From positions 9,393 to 73,392 of the forward strand of contig CAZMPJ010000007.1 in assembly GCA_964568455.1 (NCBI GenBank): a DNA stretch of 64,000 nt. The letters are read 5' to 3'. The stretch's first letter is position 1. Every line of letters begins with the position of its first letter. Under the pieces are notes generated by a model that was not told where the DNA came from, did not search any database, and worked only from the letters and a program-made list of their open reading frames with translations. The translations under genes were made by a program, and so were the position numbers. This DNA comes from an uncultured bacterium (GTDB lineage: Bacteria > Margulisbacteria > WOR-1 > O2-12-FULL-45-9). This document shows, piece by piece, positions 4,114 to 54,831 of the stretch.

Positions 4114-4684
4114 AAGTGTAAAAGGGACACAAACGGAGAAGAACTTATTAAAGGCGTTTGCAGGGGAGTCGCAAGCAAGGAATAGGTATACTTATTTTGC
4201 TTCGGTGGCTAAAAAAGCAGGATATGAGCAGGTTGCAGCTATATTTTTAGAAACTGCTGAAAACGAAAAAGAACACGCTAAAAGGTTTTTTAAATATTTA
4301 GAAGGTGGGGCAGTTGAAATTGTTGCAGCTTATCCAGCTGGAACCATTAGTTCAACTGAAGAAAATTTAAAGGCCTCGGCTGATGGAGAAAATGAAGAAT
4401 GGACCAAGCTTTATGCTGATTTTGAAAAAGTTGCGCGGGATGAGGGGTTAGAAGAGATTGCTGTCCAATTTAAGGAAATTGCCGAAGTAGAAGAGGAGCA
4501 TGAGAAAAGATATCGAAAATTATTAAAAAATATTAAAGAGAAGAAAGTTTTTAAACGAGATGAAAAAGTAAAATGGCATTGTAGAAATTGTGGTTATGTA
4601 CATGAGGGAACAGAAGCTCCCAAAATGTGTCCAGCTTGCAAACATCCGCAAGCTTATTATGAAATATTAGCAGAGAATTATTAA
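4106..4684 (+). CDS. rbr: rubrerythrin
   Basis: Ferritin-like diiron domain (ENEKEHAKRF, EEEHEKRY) plus a C-terminal rubredoxin-like CRNCGY...CPAC domain. 192 aa. Confidence 0.9.
   Translation: MGKSVKGTQTEKNLLKAFAGESQARNRYTYFASVAKKAGYEQVAAIFLETAENEKEHAKRFFKYLEGGAVEIVAAYPAGTISSTEENLKASADGENEEWTKLYADFEKVARDEGLEEIAVQFKEIAEVEEEHEKRYRKLLKNIKEKKVFKRDEKVKWHCRNCGYVHEGTEAPKMCPACKHPQAYYEILAENY
4638..4683 (+). repeat. left copy of a 46-bp imperfect direct repeat (3-prime end of rbr); the partner copy is at 6929..6974
   Basis: gcaaacatccgcaagcttattatgaaatattagcagagaattatta here versus gcaaacattcgcaggctcattatgaaatattagcagagaattatta at 6929..6974 (43 of 46 identical). Weaker similarity extends about 8 nt further upstream. 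Confidence 0.85.
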
Positions 4685-17525: not shown

Positions 17526-17539
17526 TATAATCAATTATA

Positions 17540-17627
17540 TTAAGGGGTGCCCAAAATAGATTGGGCTGAGATCCTGCCGGAGGCGGGAAACCCGTAGAAC
17601 CTGATCAGGTTAAAACCTGCGGAGGGA
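17540..17627 (+). promoter_or_regulatory. TPP (THI-box) riboswitch
   Basis: GGGGUGCCC...CUGAGA...ACCCGUAGAACCUGAUCAGGUUAAAACCUGCGGAGGGAG matches the conserved THI element (CUGAGA and ACCUGAUCUGGUUAAUACCAGCGUAGGGA-type 3-prime half). The 3-prime GGAGGGAG doubles as the thiG RBS. Confidence 0.85.
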
Positions 17628-17634
17628 GAAAAAA

Positions 17635-18399
17635 ATGACTTTAAAGATAGCTGATAAAACTTTTAATTCCCGCTTATTTATTGGTACTGGCAAATTTCCT
17701 TCTAACCAAATCTTAAAACAAGCCTTGATTGCCGCGGAAACTGAAATGGTTACTGTTTCTTTGCGCAGAGTTGATTTTGATTCCAAGCAAGAAGATGTTT
17801 TAGATGCAGTTGATAGAAAAAAATATTTATTGCTTCCTAATACCTCTGGGGCTAGAACTGCGGAAGAGGCGGTTAGATTAGCTAAGCTGGCCAAGGCTGC
17901 TGGAGCGGGAAACTGGGTTAAGCTTGAGGTGACGCCTGATCCTAATTACATGTTGCCCGATCCAATTGAGACTTTAAAAGCAGCAGAAACCTTGGTTAAG
18001 CAAGGTTTCGTAGTTCTTCCTTATATTAATGCTGATCCTGTTTTAGCCAAACACTTAGAAGAGGTGGGGACGGCAACGGTTATGCCGCTTGGTTCACCTA
18101 TTGGCTCTCATCAAGGAATTAGAACCAAAGAGGCCATTCAAATTATTATTGAACAAGCCAATATTCCGGTGGTGGTGGATGCGGGGATTGGAATACCGTC
18201 GCATGCTGCGCAAGCTATGGAAATGGGAGCGGATGCTGTTTTAGTTAACACGGCTATTGCCATTGCTGCTGATCCAGTAAAAATGGCCGAGGCTTTTAAG
18301 TTAGCTGTTCGTGCTGGCCGCCAAGCTTATGAGGTAGGTATTAAATTTCCTCAAAAACAAGCTAGTGCTTCAAGCCCTTTAACTGGTTTCTTGCGATGA
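17635..18399 (+). CDS. thiG: thiazole synthase
   Basis: 254 aa. LFIGTGKF and [13 protein letters not shown]. Directly downstream of the TPP riboswitch. Confidence 0.9.
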
Positions 18400-19409
18400 A
18401 CATCAGTTTTGAGCAATATTTAGAACTTCTTCAGCCAAAGTCTGATCAAGAACTCGAACAAATGGCGCAAAAAGCCAGGCAACTTACCTTAAAACACTTT
18501 GGCAAGACTATATTATTGTATGCGCCAATTTATTTAAATAATGAATGTGATAATCACTGTGCTTATTGCGGATTTAACCAAAAACTATCTGAAAAAAGAG
18601 TTAGCCTTTCAATTGAGCAAGTTTTACAAGAAGCAGATTTGCTTTATAAAAAAGGTTTTCGTCATATATTATTAGTTTCCGGAGAAAAACGATCTAAAAT
18701 AACCATATCTTATTTAAAACAGATCGTTTCTGCTTTGCATGCTAAATTTAGTTCGATTGCTTTGGAAATATTCCCATTAACCGAAGATGAGTATAAAGAA
18801 TTATATTTAGCTGGGGTAGATGGCTTAACTATTTATCAAGAAGTCTATGATCAAGATATTTATAAAAAAGTTCACCCTAAAGGTCCTAAATCTGATTACT
18901 CGTATAGATTGGAAACTCCAGAGCGGGCAGCTCGAGCAGGCTTTTATCGTCTTAATATTGGCACTCTTTTAGGTTTGGGAAAATGGCAAGAAGAGGCTGC
19001 TCATCTTGGTCAGCATGCTCAATATTTAATGAAAAAGTATTGGCGCTGTCAGATTTCAGTTTCGTTCCCCCGTTTGCAATCTTCTGCAGCTGGGTTTAAG
19101 CCATTTTATCCCGTTTCTGATCGACAATTAGTGCAAATGATTTGCGCCTTAAGAATTTTCTTGCCGTCATTAGGATTGGTTTTATCAACCAGAGAAGGTA
19201 AAGAGCTAAGGGATAATTTAATTCCTCTAGGGATAACTCAAATGAGTGCAGAATCAAAAACTAGTCCAGGCGGGTATTCAAAGCAAATAAAAGCTGAAGA
19301 ACAATTTAGTGTGGCAGATAAAAGAACGGTCCAAGAAGTTGCAGCGGTAATTGCGGATAAGGGGTGCGAGCCAGTTTTTAAAGATTGGGATCGGTCATTT
19401 ATACGATGA
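18396..19409 (+). CDS. thiH: 2-iminoacetate synthase (tyrosine lyase, radical SAM)
   Basis: [10 protein letters not shown] radical-SAM motif. 337 aa. Overlaps the thiG stop. Confidence 0.85.
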
Positions 19410-39510: not shown

Positions 39511-40540
39511 CACAATTATAGTTGGTGCTGGGCCATCTGGTTCTACTGCTGCTTATTATTTAGCGCAGAAGAAAAAATCAACCTTGTTGCTGGAAGCAAA
39601 AAAGCTGCCTAGATTTAAAGCCTGTGGGGGTGGTGTTTCACAAAACTTAGTAGACAGCCTTCCGGTTGGTGTTGATGTTTCTTCGGCAATTAGAGGTACT
39701 ACAAATAGTGTGCGGTTTTATGATTTTGAACTTACAAATCCAGTGGATGTGCGCTTAAAAGATCCTATTCTTATGACGGACCGATCGCAGTTTGACATGT
39801 TATTAGTTCAGGCAGCGGTTGATAAGGGTGCGCAGTTGAAAGAAGAAGTAACTGTTAAGTATGTTTTTTTTGATGGAAATAAATATAACGTTATGACTTC
39901 TGCTGGAAGATTCGAGGCTGACCATGTAATTGCTGCGGATGGAGTTTTTAGTAAGCTGGCCCAAGATATGGGTTTAATTGAAAAGCCCAAAGTAATTTTT
40001 GCTGTTGAAGCTGAAGTTAAGGGTTTAAATGCAAATCCTTCTGCAACCCATTGGGGGCGGGTAAATATTGATGAGGGCTATGCCTGGGTTTTTCCGGGAG
40101 AAGGGTGTTCTTCAATTGGCGTGCTTGGTATGGGAAAGGGAGATAAACTTAGGGCAGCATTAGATGAATGGATAAACTTGTGGGGATTTAAAGGAGAGGT
40201 TGGTAAGATACATGGTCATCCAATCCCTTTGATTGATTATACCAGACGCCTTCAACTGGACCGGTTTTTCACGGTTGGTGATGCAGCTGGATTAGCAGAT
40301 TCATTAACTGGTGAAGGCATTAAATTTGCTATTATGTCAGGAAGATTTGCTGCAGAAGCAATTTTAAGCGGTAGACCTTCTAGCTATTCTTGGAAAGTAA
40401 GAACTAATATTTATCCTTATTTTGCTTTTGGTTCTGTTTTTCGCCCGATTGTTTGGCGTTGGACTGATTTTATTTATAAACATGGAATCACCAATCCTTT
40501 TGTTCAGTATGTAATTAAGCAAGCCTTTGATCGGGTATAA
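39470..40540 (+). CDS. FAD-dependent oxidoreductase of the geranylgeranyl reductase family
   Basis: TIIVGAGPSGSTAAYYLA FAD motif, CGGGV, GDAAG. 356 aa. Alternative GTG start at 39500. Confidence 0.62.
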   Translation: MVLIWPTENTVRYNTIIVGAGPSGSTAAYYLAQKKKSTLLLEAKKLPRFKACGGGVSQNLVDSLPVGVDVSSAIRGTTNSVRFYDFELTNPVDVRLKDPILMTDRSQFDMLLVQAAVDKGAQLKEEVTVKYVFFDGNKYNVMTSAGRFEADHVIAADGVFSKLAQDMGLIEKPKVIFAVEAEVKGLNANPSATHWGRVNIDEGYAWVFPGEGCSSIGVLGMGKGDKLRAALDEWINLWGFKGEVGKIHGHPIPLIDYTRRLQLDRFFTVGDAAGLADSLTGEGIKFAIMSGRFAAEAILSGRPSSYSWKVRTNIYPYFAFGSVFRPIVWRWTDFIYKHGITNPFVQYVIKQAFDRV

Positions 40541-40587
40541 TCCTCACCCTGGGTTTTCTTAAATTTATATGCTTTGTGGTCAAATAT

Positions 40588-40612
40588 CCCTCTCCATTAT
40601 AAATGGAGAGGG
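40588..40612 (+). terminator. perfect 11-bp-stem hairpin ccctctccatt-ata-aatggagaggg followed by a T-run; likely rho-independent terminator and also a member of a GC-rich palindromic repeat family
   Basis: Read directly: stem 11 bp, loop 3 nt, then aaaagtttttctt. Confidence 0.5.
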
Positions 40613-40645
40613 AAAAGTTTTTCTTATATGCTACCTGAAGCTTAA

Positions 40646-40686
40646 CCCTTCTCCATCCCGAGCTTGTCGAGGGAAATGGAGAAGGG
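40646..40686 (+). repeat. second related palindromic element cccttctccat...atggagaaggg (11-bp outer stem with an internal tccc/ggga stem)
   Basis: Inverted repeat read directly. Shares the ttctcc/ggagaa core with 40588-40612 and 43537-43561. Confidence 0.45.
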
Positions 40687-40768
40687 CTTTAACCTATAAG
40701 CGAAGAAATATTTTATAAGTTGGGATGAGGATATTTCATCTTCCTCCTATTTATAGTAAAATATATAC

Positions 40769-43142: not shown

Positions 43143-44246
43143 ATGCATAAAGTATTAGTAGCTATGTCGGGTGGTGTGGATTCATCAGTTGCAGCGGTGC
43201 TGTTGAAAGAGCAGGAGTATGAATGTATTGGCATTACCATGTCTTTGGCTTGCTCAACCACAGCTTTTGAAGGTGGCTGTTGTGGCTTAACTGCAGTGGA
43301 TGATGCTAAAAAAGTGGCTGATAAGCTAAAAATTCCGCATTATGTGATAAATTTTAAAGATCAGTTTCAAAAATATGTGATTGATGATTTTATTCAAGAG
43401 TATAAAAATGGCCGCACGCCTAATCCATGTGTGAGATGCAATCAGTTTATTAAATTTGATCATTTGATTAGGAAGGCTGATGAGTTAGAAGTAGATTTTA
43501 TTGCAACTGGACATTATGCGGGGATTAAACCTTTACCCCCTTCTCCCTCTGGGAGAAGGGGAGGTGGGCTTAGCGATAGAGGGGATGAGGGTTTTAAATT
43601 ATTCAAAGGGAAGGACACGAAAAAAGACCAATCATATATGTTGTATAGGTTGAATCAAGAGGCTTTGGAAAGAACTTTGTTTCCATTGGGAGAATTTGTA
43701 AAAGATGAAGTTAGACAAAAAGCTAAAGAATTAGGTTTGCCAGTGCATGATAAAGAAGAAAGTCAGGAAATTTGTTTTGTAGAAGATGATAATTATGCTA
43801 ATTATTTAAAAGATAAATGTCCAGAAGTGGTTAAGCCCGGGCCGATTGTGGATAAGAAGGGGAAATTAGTTGGCAAACATGAAGGCATTGCTTTTTATAC
43901 AGTAGGGCAGCGCAAAGGCATTGGCTCGCACAAAGGTATTCCTAAATATGTAATTAAAATTGATGTTAAGAATAATACTGTGGTAATTGGAGATCAGGAA
44001 GAGACTTTTGCCAGTACTTTACAGGCTGACCAGGTTAGTTATATTTCTGGCCGGGTACCGACCAAGGCTTTGAACATTGCCGCTAAAATACGCTATAATT
44101 CAAAAGAAGCAAAGGCAATTCTTGAGCCAATTAGTCCGGATAAAGTAAAAATCATATTTAAAAAACCCCAAAGGTCAATCACTCCAGGCCAATCAGTGGT
44201 TTTTTATAATAGAGAAGAGGTCTTAGGTGGCGGAATCATTAATTGA
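43143..44246 (+). CDS. mnmA: tRNA-specific 2-thiouridylase
   Basis: SGGVDSSVAA PP-loop, conserved catalytic Cys pair, IATGHY. Carries an about 16-aa in-frame insertion. Confidence 0.9.
   Translation: MHKVLVAMSGGVDSSVAAVLLKEQEYECIGITMSLACSTTAFEGGCCGLTAVDDAKKVADKLKIPHYVINFKDQFQKYVIDDFIQEYKNGRTPNPCVRCNQFIKFDHLIRKADELEVDFIATGHYAGIKPLPPSPSGRRGGGLSDRGDEGFKLFKGKDTKKDQSYMLYRLNQEALERTLFPLGEFVKDEVRQKAKELGLPVHDKEESQEICFVEDDNYANYLKDKCPEVVKPGPIVDKKGKLVGKHEGIAFYTVGQRKGIGSHKGIPKYVIKIDVKNNTVVIGDQEETFASTLQADQVSYISGRVPTKALNIAAKIRYNSKEAKAILEPISPDKVKIIFKKPQRSITPGQSVVFYNREEVLGGGIIN
43537..43561 (+). repeat. GC-rich perfect palindrome ccccttctccc-tct-gggagaagggg inserted in-frame inside mnmA (encodes PLPPSPSGRRGGG)
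   Basis: 11-bp stem and 3-nt loop read directly. Corresponds to the extra segment relative to canonical MnmA between GHY and KDQSY. Confidence 0.6.
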
Positions 44247-45547: not shown

Positions 45548-45651
45548 GGTTTTTCCTCCTAATTCAACTTAATATTAAGCGATATTGTAGCATTGAGTCC
45601 CTATTATTGCAAATATATTTTACTTATGTTATTCTAAATTCCTGCGAGTTT

Positions 45652-45725
45652 GGCGGTGTAGCTCAGTTGGTTAGAGCAAACGGCTCATACCCGTTGCGTC
45701 AGTGGTTCGAATCCACTCACCGCCA
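45652..45725 (+). tRNA. tRNA with anticodon CAT (elongator Met or, given adjacency to tilS, possibly tRNA-Ile2 modified to LAU)
   Basis: Manual cloverleaf: 7-bp acceptor GGCGGTG/CACCGCC, D-arm GCTC/GAGC, anticodon stem AACGG/CCGTT with loop CTCATAC, T-arm AGTGG-TTCGAAT-CCACT, discriminator A. No encoded CCA. The G1-C72 pair argues against an initiator. Confidence 0.88.
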
Positions 45726-45737
45726 GAAAAGCTCAAA

Positions 45738-51230: not shown

Positions 51231-51644
51231 ATGTTTACTATTAAGACTCTTTCTGATAAAGAACTGCCGGATATTGTTGCGATTGAAAATCTTTGTTTTT
51301 CTAATCCAAAGAGTGTAGAAGTTTTCCGTCATGACGAGAATAAGTATTTAATTGCCAAAGAAAAGGATGAAGTGGTTGGTTATATTGGCATAGAAGATAT
51401 TAGTGGCGAGAAACATATCATTAATATGGCGGTGCATCCGGGTTTTAGGCGAAAAGGAGTTGCTAAAAAGCTGGTTGAAAGAATTTTGAATGATAAAGAT
51501 GTTTTCTTTTTAGAAGTCAGGATTTCTAATCAAGCGGCGCAGAATTTGTACAAGAAATATGGTTTTGAGGTTGTAGGTATTCGTAAAAAATATTATTCAG
51601 ACAATAATGAAAATGCCTATATTATGAAACGATCCCCAATGTAG
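51231..51644 (+). CDS. rimI: ribosomal-protein-alanine N-acetyltransferase (GNAT)
   Basis: GNAT motif A (HPGFRRKGVAKKL). Follows tsaB as in the conserved tsaE-tsaB-rimI arrangement. TATAAT at about 51213 and ATG at 51231 (the track ORF starts earlier, inside the Kelch gene). Confidence 0.8.
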   Translation: MFTIKTLSDKELPDIVAIENLCFSNPKSVEVFRHDENKYLIAKEKDEVVGYIGIEDISGEKHIINMAVHPGFRRKGVAKKLVERILNDKDVFFLEVRISNQAAQNLYKKYGFEVVGIRKKYYSDNNENAYIMKRSPM

Positions 51645-52395
51645 GGCAATGCTTCGTAGGGCAAGGCTTCGTAGGGCAAGGCTTTTAGCCTTGCGAATAA
51701 ACTACTACGGGAATAATTATCATGAATGAAGAAATAAAACACAAGAAAAGGTTGCGTTTAAAATATTTTAATTATGAAGGTTATTATTCCTATTTTGTTA
51801 CCATTTGTACGTTGGATAAAAAAGAAATATTTATTGATAAATCAATTGTTAATCCGATTGTTGGTTTCCTGAAAGAGTTGAGCAGTAATTATAATTTTAT
51901 CGTTTATGCCTATTGTTTTATGCCAGATCATCTACATTTGTTGTTGCAAGGAAATGATGAAAAAGCCAATCTAAAGAAATTTGTTTCAATGTTTAAGCAG
52001 AAAAGCGGGTTTTGGTATAAGAAGAAGTTTGATGCTAAGTTGTGGCAAATTAATTATTATGAACATGTTTTAAGAAAAGAAAAGGCAATTAAAGAGATTG
52101 CCTATTATATTTTTGCTAATCCAGTGAGGCAAAAATTAATTGAAGATTATCGTGATTATCCGTTTTCTGGTTCATTTGAATTTGATATTAAACAAGGAAT
52201 CATTTAATATGTGGTTGGCGGAATAAGCAACCCTAAAAGGGTTGCCTTACGGGAGAGATTGATTCCAAACGTAGGGCAAGGCTTTTAGCCTTGCGGATAG
52301 ATGAAGGCGCAACCCTAAAAGGGTTGCCTTACGGGAGAGATTGATTCCAAATGTAGGGCAAGGCTGTAGGGCAATGCTTTTAGCATTGCGGATAA
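51641..52395 (+). mobile_element. RAYT (REP-associated tyrosine transposase) gene flanked by REP/BIME-like arrays
   Basis: Left flank holds three tandem gtagggcaa(g/t)gctt units ending in the hairpin gcaaggct-ttt-agccttgc. The right flank has two about 60-bp direct repeats, each with the hairpin gcaaccc-taaaa-gggttgc plus gtagggcaaggct and more gcaaggct/gcaatgct hairpins. Confidence 0.75.
51722..52207 (+). CDS. IS200/IS605-like Y1 transposase of the REP-associated (RAYT) type
   Basis: 161 aa. HuH motif MPDHLHLLL and C-terminal catalytic-Tyr region LWQINYYEHVLR...IAYYIFANPV typical of TnpA-REP. Confidence 0.78.
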   Translation: MNEEIKHKKRLRLKYFNYEGYYSYFVTICTLDKKEIFIDKSIVNPIVGFLKELSSNYNFIVYAYCFMPDHLHLLLQGNDEKANLKKFVSMFKQKSGFWYKKKFDAKLWQINYYEHVLRKEKAIKEIAYYIFANPVRQKLIEDYRDYPFSGSFEFDIKQGII

Positions 52396-54831
52396 ATGAA
52401 ACAAGTTATGGATATTTTAGAAGCATTAGAAAATAAAATATTGGTAATTGACGGAGCTATGGGTACCCAGCTTATGGATCGTGGTGTTAGCCCGCAAGAT
52501 TGCTTTGATGCCCAAAACATTAAAAATCCCAAAATAGTTGAGTCTGTACATCAAGCTTATGTTGAGGCAGGGGCGGATATTATTGAAACTAATACTTTTG
52601 GCGCTAACCGAATTAAGTTAGCTGAATATAAACTAGATAAAAAAGTTGAAGAAATTAATATTCAAGCAGCAAAAATTGCTAGAAATGCGATTGGCCAAAA
52701 AGGATTTGTTTGTGGGTCAATTGGTCCTTTAGGTCAGTTGATTGATCCTCTTGGTGAAGTAACCTTTGACCAGGCTTATGAAACTTTTGCTGAGCAAGCT
52801 AAAGCACTTGAAAAAGGTGGGGTTGATGTTATTTGTGTTGAAACTATTTCTGATCTTCAAGAAATGCGTGCGGCGGCTATTGCAGTTAAAAATGAAACTA
52901 ATTTGCCTTTAATTTGCAGCTTAACTTATGATCCGGGTGAAAAGACTATTTATGGTACTTCTCCCGAAGTAGCGGCAGCAGTTTTAGAATCTATTGGAGT
53001 AGATATTCTAGCGGCAAACTGTTCAACCGGGCCTGAAGATATGCTTAAAGTGTGCCGTAAGTTGTTAGCTGTTAATTCTAAATTAATAATGGCTATGCCT
53101 AATGCAGGGATGCCGGAACTAGTTGGCGATAAGGCAGTTTATAAGATGACTCCGAAAAAATTTGCAGAATATGGAGTTAAACTTGCCAAACTAGGAGTTA
53201 ATATTGTGGGAGGATGTTGTGGAACGGGACCGGAGCACATAAAAGAACTCAAAATCCAAATTTCAAAATCCAAAATCCAAATAAAACCTAAAATCCAAAA
53301 TCCAAAACTAAAATTTGCAAGTCGTACAAAAGTTGTGGAAGTGGAAGAAGGGAAGACTTTGCTGGTAGGAGAGAGGATTAATCCAACTGGCAGGAAATTG
53401 TTTAGAGAAGAATTACAAAAAGGGAAAATGCAGGTTGTGCGGCAGGAAGCAGGGGAGCAGACCAGGAAAAAATCTGACCTGTTGGATGTTAATGTGTCAG
53501 TGCCAGAAGTTGATGAACCGCAATTAATGCATGCAGCTATTAATATGGTTCAATCAGTTTCTGATCTGCCAATTTCTATTGATAGTCCTAGTGTAGCCTC
53601 TTTAAAACAAGGTTTAAAAACATTTTGCGGTCGGGCTTTGCTTAATTCGGTTAATGGTAAAAAAGAGAGTTTAGAAAAAATATTGCCTCTAGCCAAAAAA
53701 TATGGAGCGGCAATTATTGCTTTAACTCTGGATGATCATGGAATTCCAAATTCTGCGCAGGAAAGAGTTAAAATCGCAGAAAGAATTGTGCGTAATGCAA
53801 CAGAAATCGGAATTCCAAAGCAAAATATTTTTGTTGATTGCTTGGTAATGACTGCAGGGATTGGAACTCAACCTTGTCTTGAAACTTTAAAAGCGATTCC
53901 CATGGTAAAAGAAAGATTAGGAGTAAAAACCATTCTTGGTATTAGCAATGTCTCCCATGGTATGCCGCTGCGTTCTAAATTAAACGCAATTTATTTTCAA
54001 TTAGCAGTTGCTTATGGATTGGATGCAGCAATTGTGGATCCCACCGACCCGGAATTGCAGAAAGTTTTAAAAAGCAAGAAAGTTTTAAGCCGAGAGGCGT
54101 TATTAGCTAAATTTAAGTCAGAAGTGTTAAAGGCAAAGAGATCGGGTAAGCCCAGTGAGAAGAAAAGAGAGGCGTTGGTAAAGGAAATCCGGTTATCTGG
54201 TTATCCGGATATCCGGGACGCGGTAATTGAAGGCGATGTGGATAAGCTTAAAATCCTAATTGAACAGGCTTTTGCAAAGAAAATGAACCCGCAGAAAATA
54301 ATTGACCAGGGTTTAATTCCAGGCATGGAAGTTGTAGGCAAGAAGTTTTCTAAAAAAGAATATTTTCTACCTCAAGTAATTGAGTCAGCCGAAACCATGA
54401 AAAAAGGTTTTGAAATTTGCCAAGCCAAGATTCCTAAAGGTAAAGCTAAATCATTGGGAAAAGTTTTATTGGCTACGGTAAAAGGTGATGTGCATGATAT
54501 TGGGAAGAATATTTTAAAAATGCTTTTGGAAAATCATGGGTTCAAAGTAACTGATCTAGGCAAAGATGTTGCTCCTGAAGAAATAATTAAAGCAGCAAAA
54601 TCCGAAAAACCAAGCGTGATTGCGCTTTCCGCTCTTTTAACCACAACTATGGTTGAGATGGGAGCGGTAAAAGATGCACTTAACAAAGCTAAACTTAATA
54701 TTCCTCTTTTAGTGGGTGGGGCAGTTGTTACCAAAGGCTATGCTGATCGAATTGGCGCAAACTATAGCATGGATGCGGTGGGGGCAGTGGCGCTGGCGAA
54801 AAAGATTTTATTGTTATACAATAATAAGTGA
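52396..54831 (+). CDS. metH: cobalamin-dependent methionine synthase lacking the AdoMet activation domain
   Basis: Homocysteine-binding (IDGAMGTQL, CGG..GT), pterin-binding and B12-binding (DVHDIGKNI, GG) domains. 811 aa. Includes an in-frame low-complexity KIQ repeat. Confidence 0.9.
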   Translation: MKQVMDILEALENKILVIDGAMGTQLMDRGVSPQDCFDAQNIKNPKIVESVHQAYVEAGADIIETNTFGANRIKLAEYKLDKKVEEINIQAAKIARNAIGQKGFVCGSIGPLGQLIDPLGEVTFDQAYETFAEQAKALEKGGVDVICVETISDLQEMRAAAIAVKNETNLPLICSLTYDPGEKTIYGTSPEVAAAVLESIGVDILAANCSTGPEDMLKVCRKLLAVNSKLIMAMPNAGMPELVGDKAVYKMTPKKFAEYGVKLAKLGVNIVGGCCGTGPEHIKELKIQISKSKIQIKPKIQNPKLKFASRTKVVEVEEGKTLLVGERINPTGRKLFREELQKGKMQVVRQEAGEQTRKKSDLLDVNVSVPEVDEPQLMHAAINMVQSVSDLPISIDSPSVASLKQGLKTFCGRALLNSVNGKKESLEKILPLAKKYGAAIIALTLDDHGIPNSAQERVKIAERIVRNATEIGIPKQNIFVDCLVMTAGIGTQPCLETLKAIPMVKERLGVKTILGISNVSHGMPLRSKLNAIYFQLAVAYGLDAAIVDPTDPELQKVLKSKKVLSREALLAKFKSEVLKAKRSGKPSEKKREALVKEIRLSGYPDIRDAVIEGDVDKLKILIEQAFAKKMNPQKIIDQGLIPGMEVVGKKFSKKEYFLPQVIESAETMKKGFEICQAKIPKGKAKSLGKVLLATVKGDVHDIGKNILKMLLENHGFKVTDLGKDVAPEEIIKAAKSEKPSVIALSALLTTTMVEMGAVKDALNKAKLNIPLLVGGAVVTKGYADRIGANYSMDAVGAVALAKKILLLYNNK

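Follow-up and report, generated by a model that had tools for sequence, protein, structure and literature searches.

Rickettsia is the best-known case of palindromic repeats colonising genes in frame; its palindromic elements (RPEs) were reportedly first described by Ogata et al. RPEs are palindromic repeats found in frame in unrelated housekeeping genes; they are translated and are compatible with the fold and function of the protein (reviewed in PMC10969869). REP sequences and BIMEs are short, dispersed, GC-rich imperfect palindromes acting as folded single strands, with RAYT (Y1) transposases; REPs are extragenic and have a GTAG-like head. The mitochondrial GC clusters and the byp elements of yeasts are mobile, GC-rich palindromes that lie within the genes of AT-rich genomes, and byp elements are bypassed by the ribosome. 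The small dispersed repeats (SDR) of Nostoc were reportedly described by Elhai et al. in 2008. Cyanobacteria also contain heptanucleotide repeats (STRR) with the G-rich unit GGGGA(C/T)T, which are reported to lie mostly between genes and to be under-represented in coding sequence (PMC4692102). MITEs (ERIC, BOX, Correia, cyanobacterial MITEs) are small non-autonomous elements with inverted ends, sometimes fused in frame to genes (PMC10969869).

The process known from Rickettsia probably also operates, with much smaller elements, in a sister group of Cyanobacteria that is free-living and uncultivated. The stretch of DNA that we have analyzed (the window, 64,000 nt) contains a gene for a tRNA-modifying enzyme with a hairpin repeat in its coding region:

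43143-44246, plus strand: mnmA, tRNA 2-thiouridine(34) synthase, 367 aa, intact
43527-43592, plus strand: full in-frame insert, 66 nt, codons K129-G150, translated KPLPPSPSGRRGGGLSDRGDEG
43527-43535, plus strand: 5' outer arm AAACCTTTA, which pairs (including G-U) with 43586-43594 in the centroid structure
43537-43561, plus strand: inner perfect palindrome CCCCTTCTCCCTCTGGGAGAAGGGG, 11-bp stem and 3-nt loop, identical in the closest relative, L001
43586-43594, plus strand: 3' outer arm TGAGGGTTT of the centroid structure, overlapping the end motif GGGATGAGG (43582-43590)

Residues 3-366 of the ORF align to the PDB MnmA chains 9hln, 2hma and 2der (E 6e-77 to 7e-68), and the Pfam matches are PF03054 (2.4e-73), PF20259 (3.5e-18) and PF20258 (2.6e-19). 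The three-domain architecture of MnmA is present: PP-loop HUP domain, PRC barrel and C-terminal barrel. The PP-loop MSGGVDSS corresponds to MnmA residues 8-15; Cys96/Cys99 (NPCVRCN) and Cys211 (EICF) are invariant in the clade alignment. Outside the insert the gene is under purifying selection (dN 0.09, dS ~1.1, dN/dS ~0.08 against L001). The downstream gene, nadA, overlaps its 3' end.

The first-pass annotation of this DNA had placed a palindrome, CCCCTTCTCCC-TCT-GGGAGAAGGGG, in frame at 43537-43561 within mnmA and had translated it as PLPPSPSGRRGGG. Both statements are correct; the local reading in the ORF translation is ...GHYAGIKPLPPSPSGRRGGGLSDRGDEGFKLFKGKDTKKDQSY.... The palindrome is the core of the insert, but the inserted unit is bigger, 66 nt (43527-43592) instead of 25 nt, its limits being set by alignment with 120 orthologs and with PDB MnmA. 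The insert is GC-rich in a gene with 38% GC, its 5' half is pyrimidine-rich and its 3' half purine-rich, and it uses the minor codons CCC, AGG and GGG. CCCCTTCTCCCTCTGGGAGAAGGGG occurs only once in the window and was matched in 0 of 100 dinucleotide shuffles. The same sequence is found in 8 independently assembled contigs (JGI, ENA, Logan), which rules out an assembly artefact. The whole insert is self-complementary and its outer arms are terminal inverted repeats, as in MITEs, and it is too short to encode a transposase. The outer stem is weaker in the window than in the relatives L011, L218 and L012-L216, where it is longer and cleaner. As RNA the insert folds with -28.5 kcal/mol, which is unexceptional against composition-matched shuffles (z = -0.68); folded as DNA, it has z = -2.2. 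The evidence for the hairpin is its symmetry, not its folding energy. The insert hairpin has no match among Rfam families and no terminator-like site or tail, and no X XXY YYZ heptamer is found ahead of its stem in the window sequence.

A lengthening of the segment between GHY and KDQSY, and its location in a surface loop, had also been proposed. The segment has 35 residues here versus 19-21 in other phyla, and alignment with S. pneumoniae MnmA gives 14 additional residues. Counted inclusively, GHY to KDQxY takes 27-29 residues in 65 of the 70 MnmA proteins from other phyla among the matches listed; these proteins, with 41-49% identity, served as an outgroup baseline only. In an AF2 model the insert forms a loop of low confidence (pLDDT <50 for residues 133-147) at a beta-hairpin tip, flanked by strands 127-130 and 151-154. 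The loop is thus predicted to be disordered.

The alignment of the 120 orthologs from Saganbacteria and Margulisbacteria confirms the insertion, at a hypervariable site. From 0 to ~50 residues are added there, so that ATGHY to KDQSY inclusive varies between 25 and 74 residues. We have classed 16 of the 120 orthologs as insert-free, the remainder carry inserts of several unrelated kinds. What the site holds varies: related hairpins with a pyrimidine arm and a purine arm (Y/R hairpins), tandem repeats of a heptanucleotide, small palindromes nested in one another, remnants, or no insert at all. The reading frame is uninterrupted in the window and in all 120 orthologs. Four relatives (L012, L013, L215, L216) have hairpins of ~60 nt with -47 to -52 kcal/mol. 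L011 has an outer stem and a 12-bp inner stem (-65 kcal/mol for the GHY-KDQ segment, -55 for the insert with 9-nt flanks), and L218 a nested 114-nt hairpin (-72 kcal/mol). The 3' arms carry 4-5 G-tracts, and type-A arms contain heptamer-like units (CAACCCC x2, GGGGATA x2). In L014 and L217 heptamer arrays are found in mnmA instead of the hairpin, and a 16-nt palindrome is nested in the L217 array. One nested palindrome (CLPAG..., TGCCTGCCGGCAGGCA) is common to different heptamer backgrounds and to intergenic DNA of L014; intergenic heptamers and a similar palindrome are found in L012 and L014.

The content of the site changes between close relatives. Hosts which are 85-91% identical may have a type-A hairpin, another repeat, or none, and mean host identity is 0.68 within the type-A group versus 0.68 between groups. 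We have relied on nearest-neighbour identities because the neighbour-joining tree was poorly resolved. L220 has a clean empty site; comparison with it shows 3 codons replaced and no duplication. Remnants and partial deletions are frequent: P0028 and P0096 have lost the left arm and keep the right-arm peptide RGKGIGDRG. On the other hand, the ortholog with 86% identity has the identical palindrome, so the insertion is neither recent nor private. The suggestion that a repeat has colonised a coding sequence is supported by these different repeat types, or their absence, at the same site and by the hairpin peptides in the metH linker of relatives (see below), and the pattern is wider than had been proposed. 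We also looked for orthologs with the extra segment in non-palindromic form, as expected of an ancestral loop; the orthologous inserts are palindromic too.

A striking feature of the insert is the conservation of its DNA. It is 92-95% identical in nucleotides between genomes whose mnmA genes are 61-81% identical; in the comparisons where the insert has 92-95%, the rest of the gene has 61-74% nucleotide identity, and for the window and L001 the values are 57 of 60 nt in the insert and 81% in the rest of mnmA. Third codon positions are 90-95% identical in the insert versus 35-49% in the rest of the gene (p 1e-4 to 3e-8), and synonymous-site divergence (pS) is 0.03-0.15 in the insert versus 0.57-0.84 in the background, with sharp edges at the insert borders. 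In L219, a loss of 2 nt in one arm and a gain of 2 nt in the other lead to the same hairpin core being read in another frame. Inner-stem cells are Watson-Crick paired in 90 of 90 cases across 9 sequences, including exchanges of T:A to C:G. What persists is the hairpin nucleic acid and not the peptide. Within the type-A group, inserts are more alike when their hosts are more alike (rho 0.38), so the history of the insert is vertical at least in part. If the history is vertical, the very low pS requires purifying selection on the hairpin itself, which is compatible with a functional and with a selfish element alike.

Similar repeats are found elsewhere in the window, in a spacer and in a second gene:

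40542-40757, no strand assigned: intergenic hairpin composite, ~200 nt, with inverted ends CCTCACCC...GGGATGAGG; fold -66 kcal/mol
40587-40613, no strand assigned: hairpin A, TCCCTCTCCATT-ATA-AATGGAGAGGGA followed by a T-run, terminator-like
40643-40690, no strand assigned: hairpin B, arms CCCTTCTCCAT / ATGGAGAAGGG, with a 9-mer in common with the mnmA palindrome
53250-53307, plus strand: heptanucleotide array, CAAAATC x 8.7, in frame in the interdomain linker of metH (ORF 52396-54831)

The mnmA palindrome had been assigned to the same family as the elements at 40.6 kb. This is supported at the level of motifs only: the arm 9-mer CCCTTCTCC/GGAGAAGGG has 5 occurrences in the window versus 0.45 expected, and the end motif GGGATGAGG is common to the mnmA insert and the 40.7-kb element. 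Two other candidates, GGGAGAAGGG at 40096 and CCTCATCCC at 4437, were rejected as family members, they are ordinary coding sequence without partner arms. In the alignment of the window with L001, the 40.5-40.7 kb block is missing from the orthologous spacer, a MITE-like indel. Filled and empty sites are thus found among relatives for this block as well as for the mnmA insert.

In this genome the metH linker is thus a further permissive site, next to the mnmA loop, that holds a small repeat. In relatives, a comparison of peptides shows that metH linkers hold hairpin peptides also seen in mnmA inserts. The linker of P0207 contains PLSPSPLLRGKGI, with 13 aa identical to the mnmA insert of P0008 (both contigs have 101,461 nt), and that of P0182 contains PLSPSPLIRGKGN, paired with mnmA P0048 (both contigs have 134,672 nt). 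Equal sizes and sources indicate that the mnmA and metH copies are very probably on the same contigs or genomes. Other metH linkers have the window-like PSPSGRG (P0213) and PSPCPSGRRARG (P0142). At the peptide level, in-frame sharing covers two genes, mnmA and metH.

There is one copy of the mnmA palindrome within the 64-kb window, and ~212 kb of DNA sampled from Saganbacteria/Margulisbacteria yielded no further copy of the exact window-type hairpin or of the type-A hairpin. A metagenome scan for CCCCYTCYCCCN{3,7}GGGRGARGGGG gave, among the matches listed, mostly high-GC contigs from many habitats, and none in mnmA; this shows that the Y/R hairpin design is generic and common in metagenomes from many habitats. 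A word search with concatenated insert peptides gave zero candidates. When 1.84 billion representatives were searched in full by HMMER with a type-A peptide of 30 residues, there were three matches, which we have rejected as homologs: they are spurious ORFs across tandem hairpin repeats.

The mnmA insert resembles RPEs in being palindromic, in frame and translated in a conserved gene. Nevertheless, RPEs have ~100-150 bp and are specific to Rickettsia, whereas the mnmA element has ~60-66 nt (up to 114 nt) and belongs to another phylum. Its arms, one of pyrimidines and one of purines, and its clustering at a few hot spots which also take heptamers are further differences. At synonymous sites this element also exceeds its host gene in conservation, which to our knowledge has not been reported for RPEs. 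With REPs and BIMEs the hairpin shares the features of a short folded palindrome, but it is intragenic and the GTAG-like head is absent. The 40.5-40.7 kb block is MITE-like in its inverted ends and indel polymorphism. The mnmA unit is shorter than typical MITEs, and no target-site duplication, partner transposase or other mobilising enzyme could be tied to it; there is no clear direct repeat beside the insert, the edge TTAAA/TTTAA being itself part of the palindrome. Unlike byp elements, the insert has an open frame, preserved in all orthologs that were examined; the simplest interpretation is therefore that the ribosome translates through it. The likeness to STRR and SDR is one of organisation: the lineage is a sister of Cyanobacteria and has heptamer tandem arrays (in the mnmA genes of L014 and L217 and the metH gene of the window), nested tiny hairpin repeats, such as the palindrome nested in heptamers, and units rich in G-tracts. 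However, its repeats lie in frame in conserved enzymes, whereas STRR are mainly intergenic, and the type-A GGGGATA units resemble the cyanobacterial GGGGA(C/T)T (PMC4692102) but are not equal to it.

We consider it likely that the mnmA hairpin is a small palindromic repeat of a dispersed type, of the same kind as RPEs and MITEs, which a permissive loop tolerates; it would be one of a set of small repeats turning over at permissive sites. The palindrome would be the core of a ~66-nt hairpin repeat of a non-coding type, in which stop codons are nearly absent because the 5' arm is rich in pyrimidines and the 3' arm in purines. Placed in frame where a beta-hairpin turns on the surface of MnmA, at its tip, it would be read straight through by the ribosome, and the product would be a disordered loop, Pro/Ser and then Gly/Arg, tolerated by the enzyme. 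The set of this lineage, made up of Y/R hairpins, tandem arrays of heptanucleotides and short palindromes nested in one another, would be found between genes and at the few places where conserved genes are permissive, for example the loop of mnmA and the linker of metH, with turnover by insertion, deletion, slippage and nesting. The element presumably arrived by a mobile or copy-paste mechanism, and its high conservation would reflect constraint on the element family or on the hairpin itself, not service to MnmA. The hairpin itself may have a function.

It is rather unlikely that selection maintains the hairpin as a cis-acting structure of RNA or single-stranded DNA in the mnmA message, with the peptide as a passenger: it might make the ribosome pause, determine RNase III cleavage or mRNA decay, or act as a hairpin/G-quadruplex switch tuning MnmA and the overlapping nadA. 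Nucleotide conservation far beyond the synonymous background with sharp insert edges, the stem kept despite the frame change in L219, the compensatory stem differences and the vertical signal among type-A inserts all point in this direction, as do the G-tracts of the 3' arms, the minor codons and the overlap with nadA. On the other hand, many close relatives have no hairpin or have unrelated heptamer inserts at the site, the same hairpin type in the metH linker and related ones in intergenic DNA argue against a role specific to mnmA, and the hairpin has neither an Rfam match, nor a terminator-like tail, nor a fold energy better than that of the shuffles. Its loops (UCU, AUU, UGA) are also unlike the U34 anticodon loop; mimicry of the tRNA anticodon arm for autoregulation was rejected, since these are 3-nt loops and not 7-nt loops of the U34 type. 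It is quite doubtful that Y/R hairpins are selected modules placed in the coding regions of particular enzymes of sulfur and one-carbon metabolism, mnmA and metH, and tuning their expression, for example as a hairpin/G-quadruplex switch or as an RNase or ribosome-pause site; if true, this would explain how the DNA is held 92-95% constant despite synonymous saturation and frame change.

An origin in place is improbable: template switching or slippage at a fragile spot, giving inverted duplication and heptamer expansion at a hot spot whose frame is filtered by selection. Such an origin agrees with inserts in relatives that are self-complementary from first to last base, with the heptamer-like units of type-A arms, with the many remnants and partial deletions and with the lack of a clear target-site duplication. 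However, near-identical hairpins are found in hosts with saturated synonymous divergence, the same core peptide is found in metH, and the same nested palindrome in different heptamer backgrounds and in intergenic DNA of L014; independent events would not arrive at one and the same sequence. RNA can be bound by peptides rich in Arg and Gly, and tRNA is what MnmA binds, so an ancestral loop kept for protein function, such as an RNA-binding extension with incidental palindromy, might be imagined, and RGKGIGDRG does persist without its left arm. This reading is very improbable, and is already contradicted by the conserved synonymous positions and by the different frame of L219; orthologs with unrelated peptides or none, and the predicted disorder, also speak against it. 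C-rich and G-rich sequences fold well from composition alone, but a chance palindrome or an artefact has practically no probability left and is already refuted by the shuffles, by the contigs of different assemblies and by the conservation in L001. Programmed frameshift or bypass was discarded, since all frames are open and a slippery site is absent, and so were an intein, an intron and an rRNA-type intervening sequence, the insert being too small and translated.

With small repeats turning over at permissive sites as the preferred explanation, the repeats of this lineage would concentrate at a few hot spots, the beta-hairpin tip of MnmA and the linker of MetH, where hairpins, heptamer arrays and nested palindromes interchange. 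Another distinctive feature is that the DNA of the hairpin is conserved far beyond the synonymous background of its host gene. Such inserts inflate the apparent divergence of proteins and can mislead alignment, phylogeny and domain annotation in these phyla. They also mark surface sites which tolerate insertions.

A link of the mnmA hairpin to the RAYT-like gene of the window (51722-52207, PF01797) was considered and rejected: this gene is flanked by GTAGGGCAAGGCTT... repeats, which differ, and the hairpin is without a GTAG-type head. The RAYT-like region as a whole covers 51.6-52.4 kb of the window and has flanking GTAG-headed repeats.

The first-pass annotation had placed a palindrome within the mnmA reading frame, with 35 residues between the GHY and KDQSY motifs. 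This is confirmed by the open reading frame, its translation (GHYAGIKPLPPSPSGRRGGGLSDRGDEGFKLFKGKDTKKDQSY around the palindrome) and the Pfam and structure matches. The features concerned, all in the + strand, are:

43143–44246: mnmA open reading frame, matched over its full length by solved MnmA structures, three MnmA Pfam domains
43527–43592: full inserted unit, K129–G150, 66 nt, with the palindrome as its core
43537–43561: palindrome CCCCTTCTCCC-TCT-GGGAGAAGGGG, 25 nt, perfect 11-bp stem, 3-nt loop
43527–43535, paired with 43586–43594: weaker outer stem around the palindrome (predicted fold)

The mnmA product gives full-length alignments with the solved structures (E down to 6e-77) and retains the PP-loop and three conserved cysteines. 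The proteins that match it best carry the names Candidatus Saganbacteria, Margulisbacteria or WOR-1; dN is 0.09 and dS about 1.1 against the closest ortholog. By all available tests, the gene is functional. The start of nadA (GTG 44227) lies inside the last 20 nt of mnmA (44227–44246), and this gene pair, together with nearby cysteine desulfurase/NifU genes, is syntenic throughout the clade. In most MnmA genes of other phyla among the matches listed (65 of 70), the span from GHY to KDQxY, both included, is 27–29 residues, which means 19–21 between the motifs. The AlphaFold2 model of the window protein has a mean pLDDT of 82; residues 133–147, between strands 127–130 and 151–154, fall below 50, so the insert is predicted to cap a beta-hairpin as a disordered loop. 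A surface loop had been expected here.

The palindrome is found once in the window, and none of 100 dinucleotide shuffles contains a match. The same DNA is present in eight contigs assembled independently, so an assembly artefact is ruled out. The RNA fold energy of the insert is not better than that of composition-matched shuffles (z = −0.68; −2.2 as DNA), and the case for a hairpin is accordingly built on its symmetry and on comparative data rather than on energy.

When the 120 closest MnmA orthologs are aligned, ATGHY through KDQSY takes up 25 to 74 residues, and 16 orthologs have no insert. We have classified the occupants of the site by eye and with a regular expression:

Type A, Pro/Ser then Gly/Arg/Lys peptide: QPLTPFSPSPLLRGKGIGDRG
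Type B, Pro/Ser then Gly/Arg/Lys peptide, including the window: ...PSPSGRGGG...GGEG, PLPEGEGVG
Peptides with a 7-residue period: MTNDQCQMSNEG, KSEIRNPKSETNPK, ESRKQNTEHRTQE
Compounds: for example, MTNDQ-CLPAGQAG-QMSNEG
Remnants: SPSPL; QPLRGKGIGDRG

The insert DNA was compared in eleven orthologs, including that of the closest relative (L001, 86% protein identity). Type A and type B inserts form a hairpin along their entire length. With 9-nt flanks, those of relatives L011, L012, L013, L215, L216 and L219 fold with −47 to −55 kcal/mol, and L218 has a nested hairpin of 114 nt (−72 kcal/mol). L014 contains four CCGAATK heptamers, L217 contains AACCTCC-type heptamers which enclose a perfect 16-nt palindrome, and in L220 the site is empty. 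The lengths of nadA, tilS, folP, folK and tsaE, beside mnmA, are nearly constant across the same loci. The GHY–KDQSY site is a hot spot for repeats. The first-pass interpretation holds overall, but the element is larger than was proposed there, and older, and forms part of a clade-wide pattern.

The 16-nt palindrome, TGCCTGCCGGCAGGCA (peptide CLPAG...), is nested in differing mnmA heptamer arrays in four lineages:

L217, 10001–11095: nested in mnmA heptamers
Proteins P0033, P0075, P0088 and P0100: nested in mnmA heptamers

A similar palindrome is found in intergenic DNA (L014, 8921–8990). The 16-nt palindrome is probably a further dispersed element, of very small size. A heptamer-like insert, REFPISNFQFPIKSQIQNS, is present at the same loop in L032 (Candidatus Howlettbacteria, CPR), with Margulisbacteria-like flanks; this is the only clear outlier among the 70 outgroup MnmA genes among the matches listed.

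The 25-nt palindrome is identical in the window and L001. The insert has 57 of 60 aligned bases identical, versus 81% for the remaining gene; at third codon positions the values are 18 of 20 and 60%. In four type A genomes the insert is 92–95% identical (remaining mnmA, 61–74%), with 90–95% at third positions versus 35–49% (p from 1e-4 to 3e-8), and the rise in identity is limited to the bounds of the insert. Of two closely related genomes at 85% nucleotide identity, L215 and L219, the latter shows a 2-nt loss in the left arm and a 2-nt gain in the right; the core common to both, CCCCTTCCCCCTTAYYAAGGGGGAAGGGG, therefore gives PFPLTKGEGE in place of SPSPLSRGKG. When nine sequences are compared at the ten stem positions nearest the loop, 90 of 90 cells are Watson–Crick pairs; at one position of the type B stem, the window and L001 have T:A, and L011 and L218 have C:G. 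The nucleic acid, rather than the peptide, is conserved. The purine 3' arms (window 43551–43591; L012–L216) have four to five runs of at least 3 G (GGGGGAAGGGGATAGGGGATAGGGG in type A) and could, on paper, form a G-quadruplex when unpaired from the C-rich arm.

A second repeat-bearing site is the MetH linker between the homocysteine and pterin domains, as seen in relatives collected by a search with the window MetH. In most of them the linker has 24 residues coded by heptamers. The window array is:

53250–53307, + strand: CAAAATC × 8.7, in frame, in the interdomain linker of metH (52396–54831, + strand), encoding KIQISKSKIQIKPKIQNPKL

Hairpins or heptamers occupy the same linker in L014 and L216, and in some relatives it contains the peptide of a type A or type B hairpin. 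The linker of MetH protein P0207 holds ...PLSPSPLLRGKGI..., with 13 residues identical, at the peptide level, to the mnmA insert of P0008; each is listed on a 101,461-nt JGI contig. P0182 holds PLSPSPLIRGKGN, and its counterpart is the mnmA insert of P0048, both on a 134,672-nt contig. The linkers of P0213 (PSPSGRG) and P0142 (PSPCPSGRRARG) resemble window type B.

The most economical reading of the mnmA insert is a small non-autonomous hairpin-forming repeat. On either strand it has a pyrimidine arm followed by a purine arm, a composition with few stop codons, and the repeat would persist in frame at the few spots where a conserved enzyme accepts additional residues. Such spots would be the MnmA loop and the MetH linker, where several kinds of repeats come and go. 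Small repeats of Cyanobacteria were reportedly described by Elhai et al. 2008. The mnmA hairpin may be placed beside Rickettsia palindromic elements and intragenic MITEs (PMC10969869), and the repeats of this site beside the heptamers and small repeats of Cyanobacteria (PMC4692102). It differs from all these in element size, in its hot-spot behaviour and in a synonymous-site conservation which exceeds that of the host gene.

Simple tolerance does not explain this conservation. One of two explanations is that copies are kept alike by family-level constraints, either because they are copied from sources that are conserved or through gene conversion between copies; the other, selection on the hairpin itself, we consider rather unlikely. 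Dispersal of the element is favoured by the MetH linkers, by the intergenic block at 40542–40757 described below, and by the type A hosts, which are not a clade (host identity 0.68 both within and between types) and whose nearest neighbours (85–91% identity) have nothing or other repeats at the site. Also in its favour, hairpins of this general design are abundant across metagenomes from many habitats, among the matches listed. Against dispersal, about 212 kb of sampled clade DNA contained no further copy of the exact hairpin, whether that of the window or that of type A, and no target-site duplication was found at the insert. Insert similarity tracks host similarity among type A bearers (rho 0.38), which also speaks against dispersal, so part of the history of the insert is vertical.

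Two other regions of the window contain hairpins:

40542–40757, intergenic, between the genes for an FAD-dependent oxidoreductase and a cysteine desulfurase: block about 200 nt long, containing two hairpins, with inverted ends
51722–52207, + strand (unit 51641–52378): Y1-transposase gene (PF01797), RAYT/IS200 type, 161 aa

The intergenic block is missing from the orthologous L001 spacer, where a RhuM-family gene is found just downstream. It shares with the mnmA palindrome an arm 9-mer, CCCTTCTCC/GGAGAAGGG (5 occurrences, 0.45 expected), and with the mnmA insert an end motif, GGGATGAGG; the earlier assignment of both to a single family stands at this motif level only. The centre of its hairpin B (40655–40673) is a 20-nt motif, TCCCGAGC(N3-4)GTCGAGGGA, common to distant genomes: it is also nested in the metH-linker heptamer array of L216 (about 19100–19130).

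On either side of the RAYT-like gene are GTAG-headed repeats (GTAGGGCAAGGCTTC × 2.9; TGTAGGGCAAGGC) together with the hairpins GCAAGGCTTTTAGCCTTGC and GCAACCCTAAAAGGGTTGC, so that 51641–52378 looks like a REP-RAYT unit. Its flanking repeats differ from the mnmA hairpin, which counts against dispersal, and we have rejected it as the source.

A TPP riboswitch (RF00059, 76.9 bits) is found at 17533–17644 (+ strand). The tRNA gene at 45651–45726 (+ strand) has the anticodon CAT and precedes tilS, which codes for tRNA-Ile lysidine synthetase, by about 270 nt; tilS is placed at about 45.99–47.38 kb by synteny with relative L003. This tRNA may be tRNA-Ile2, the TilS substrate, rather than tRNA-Met.
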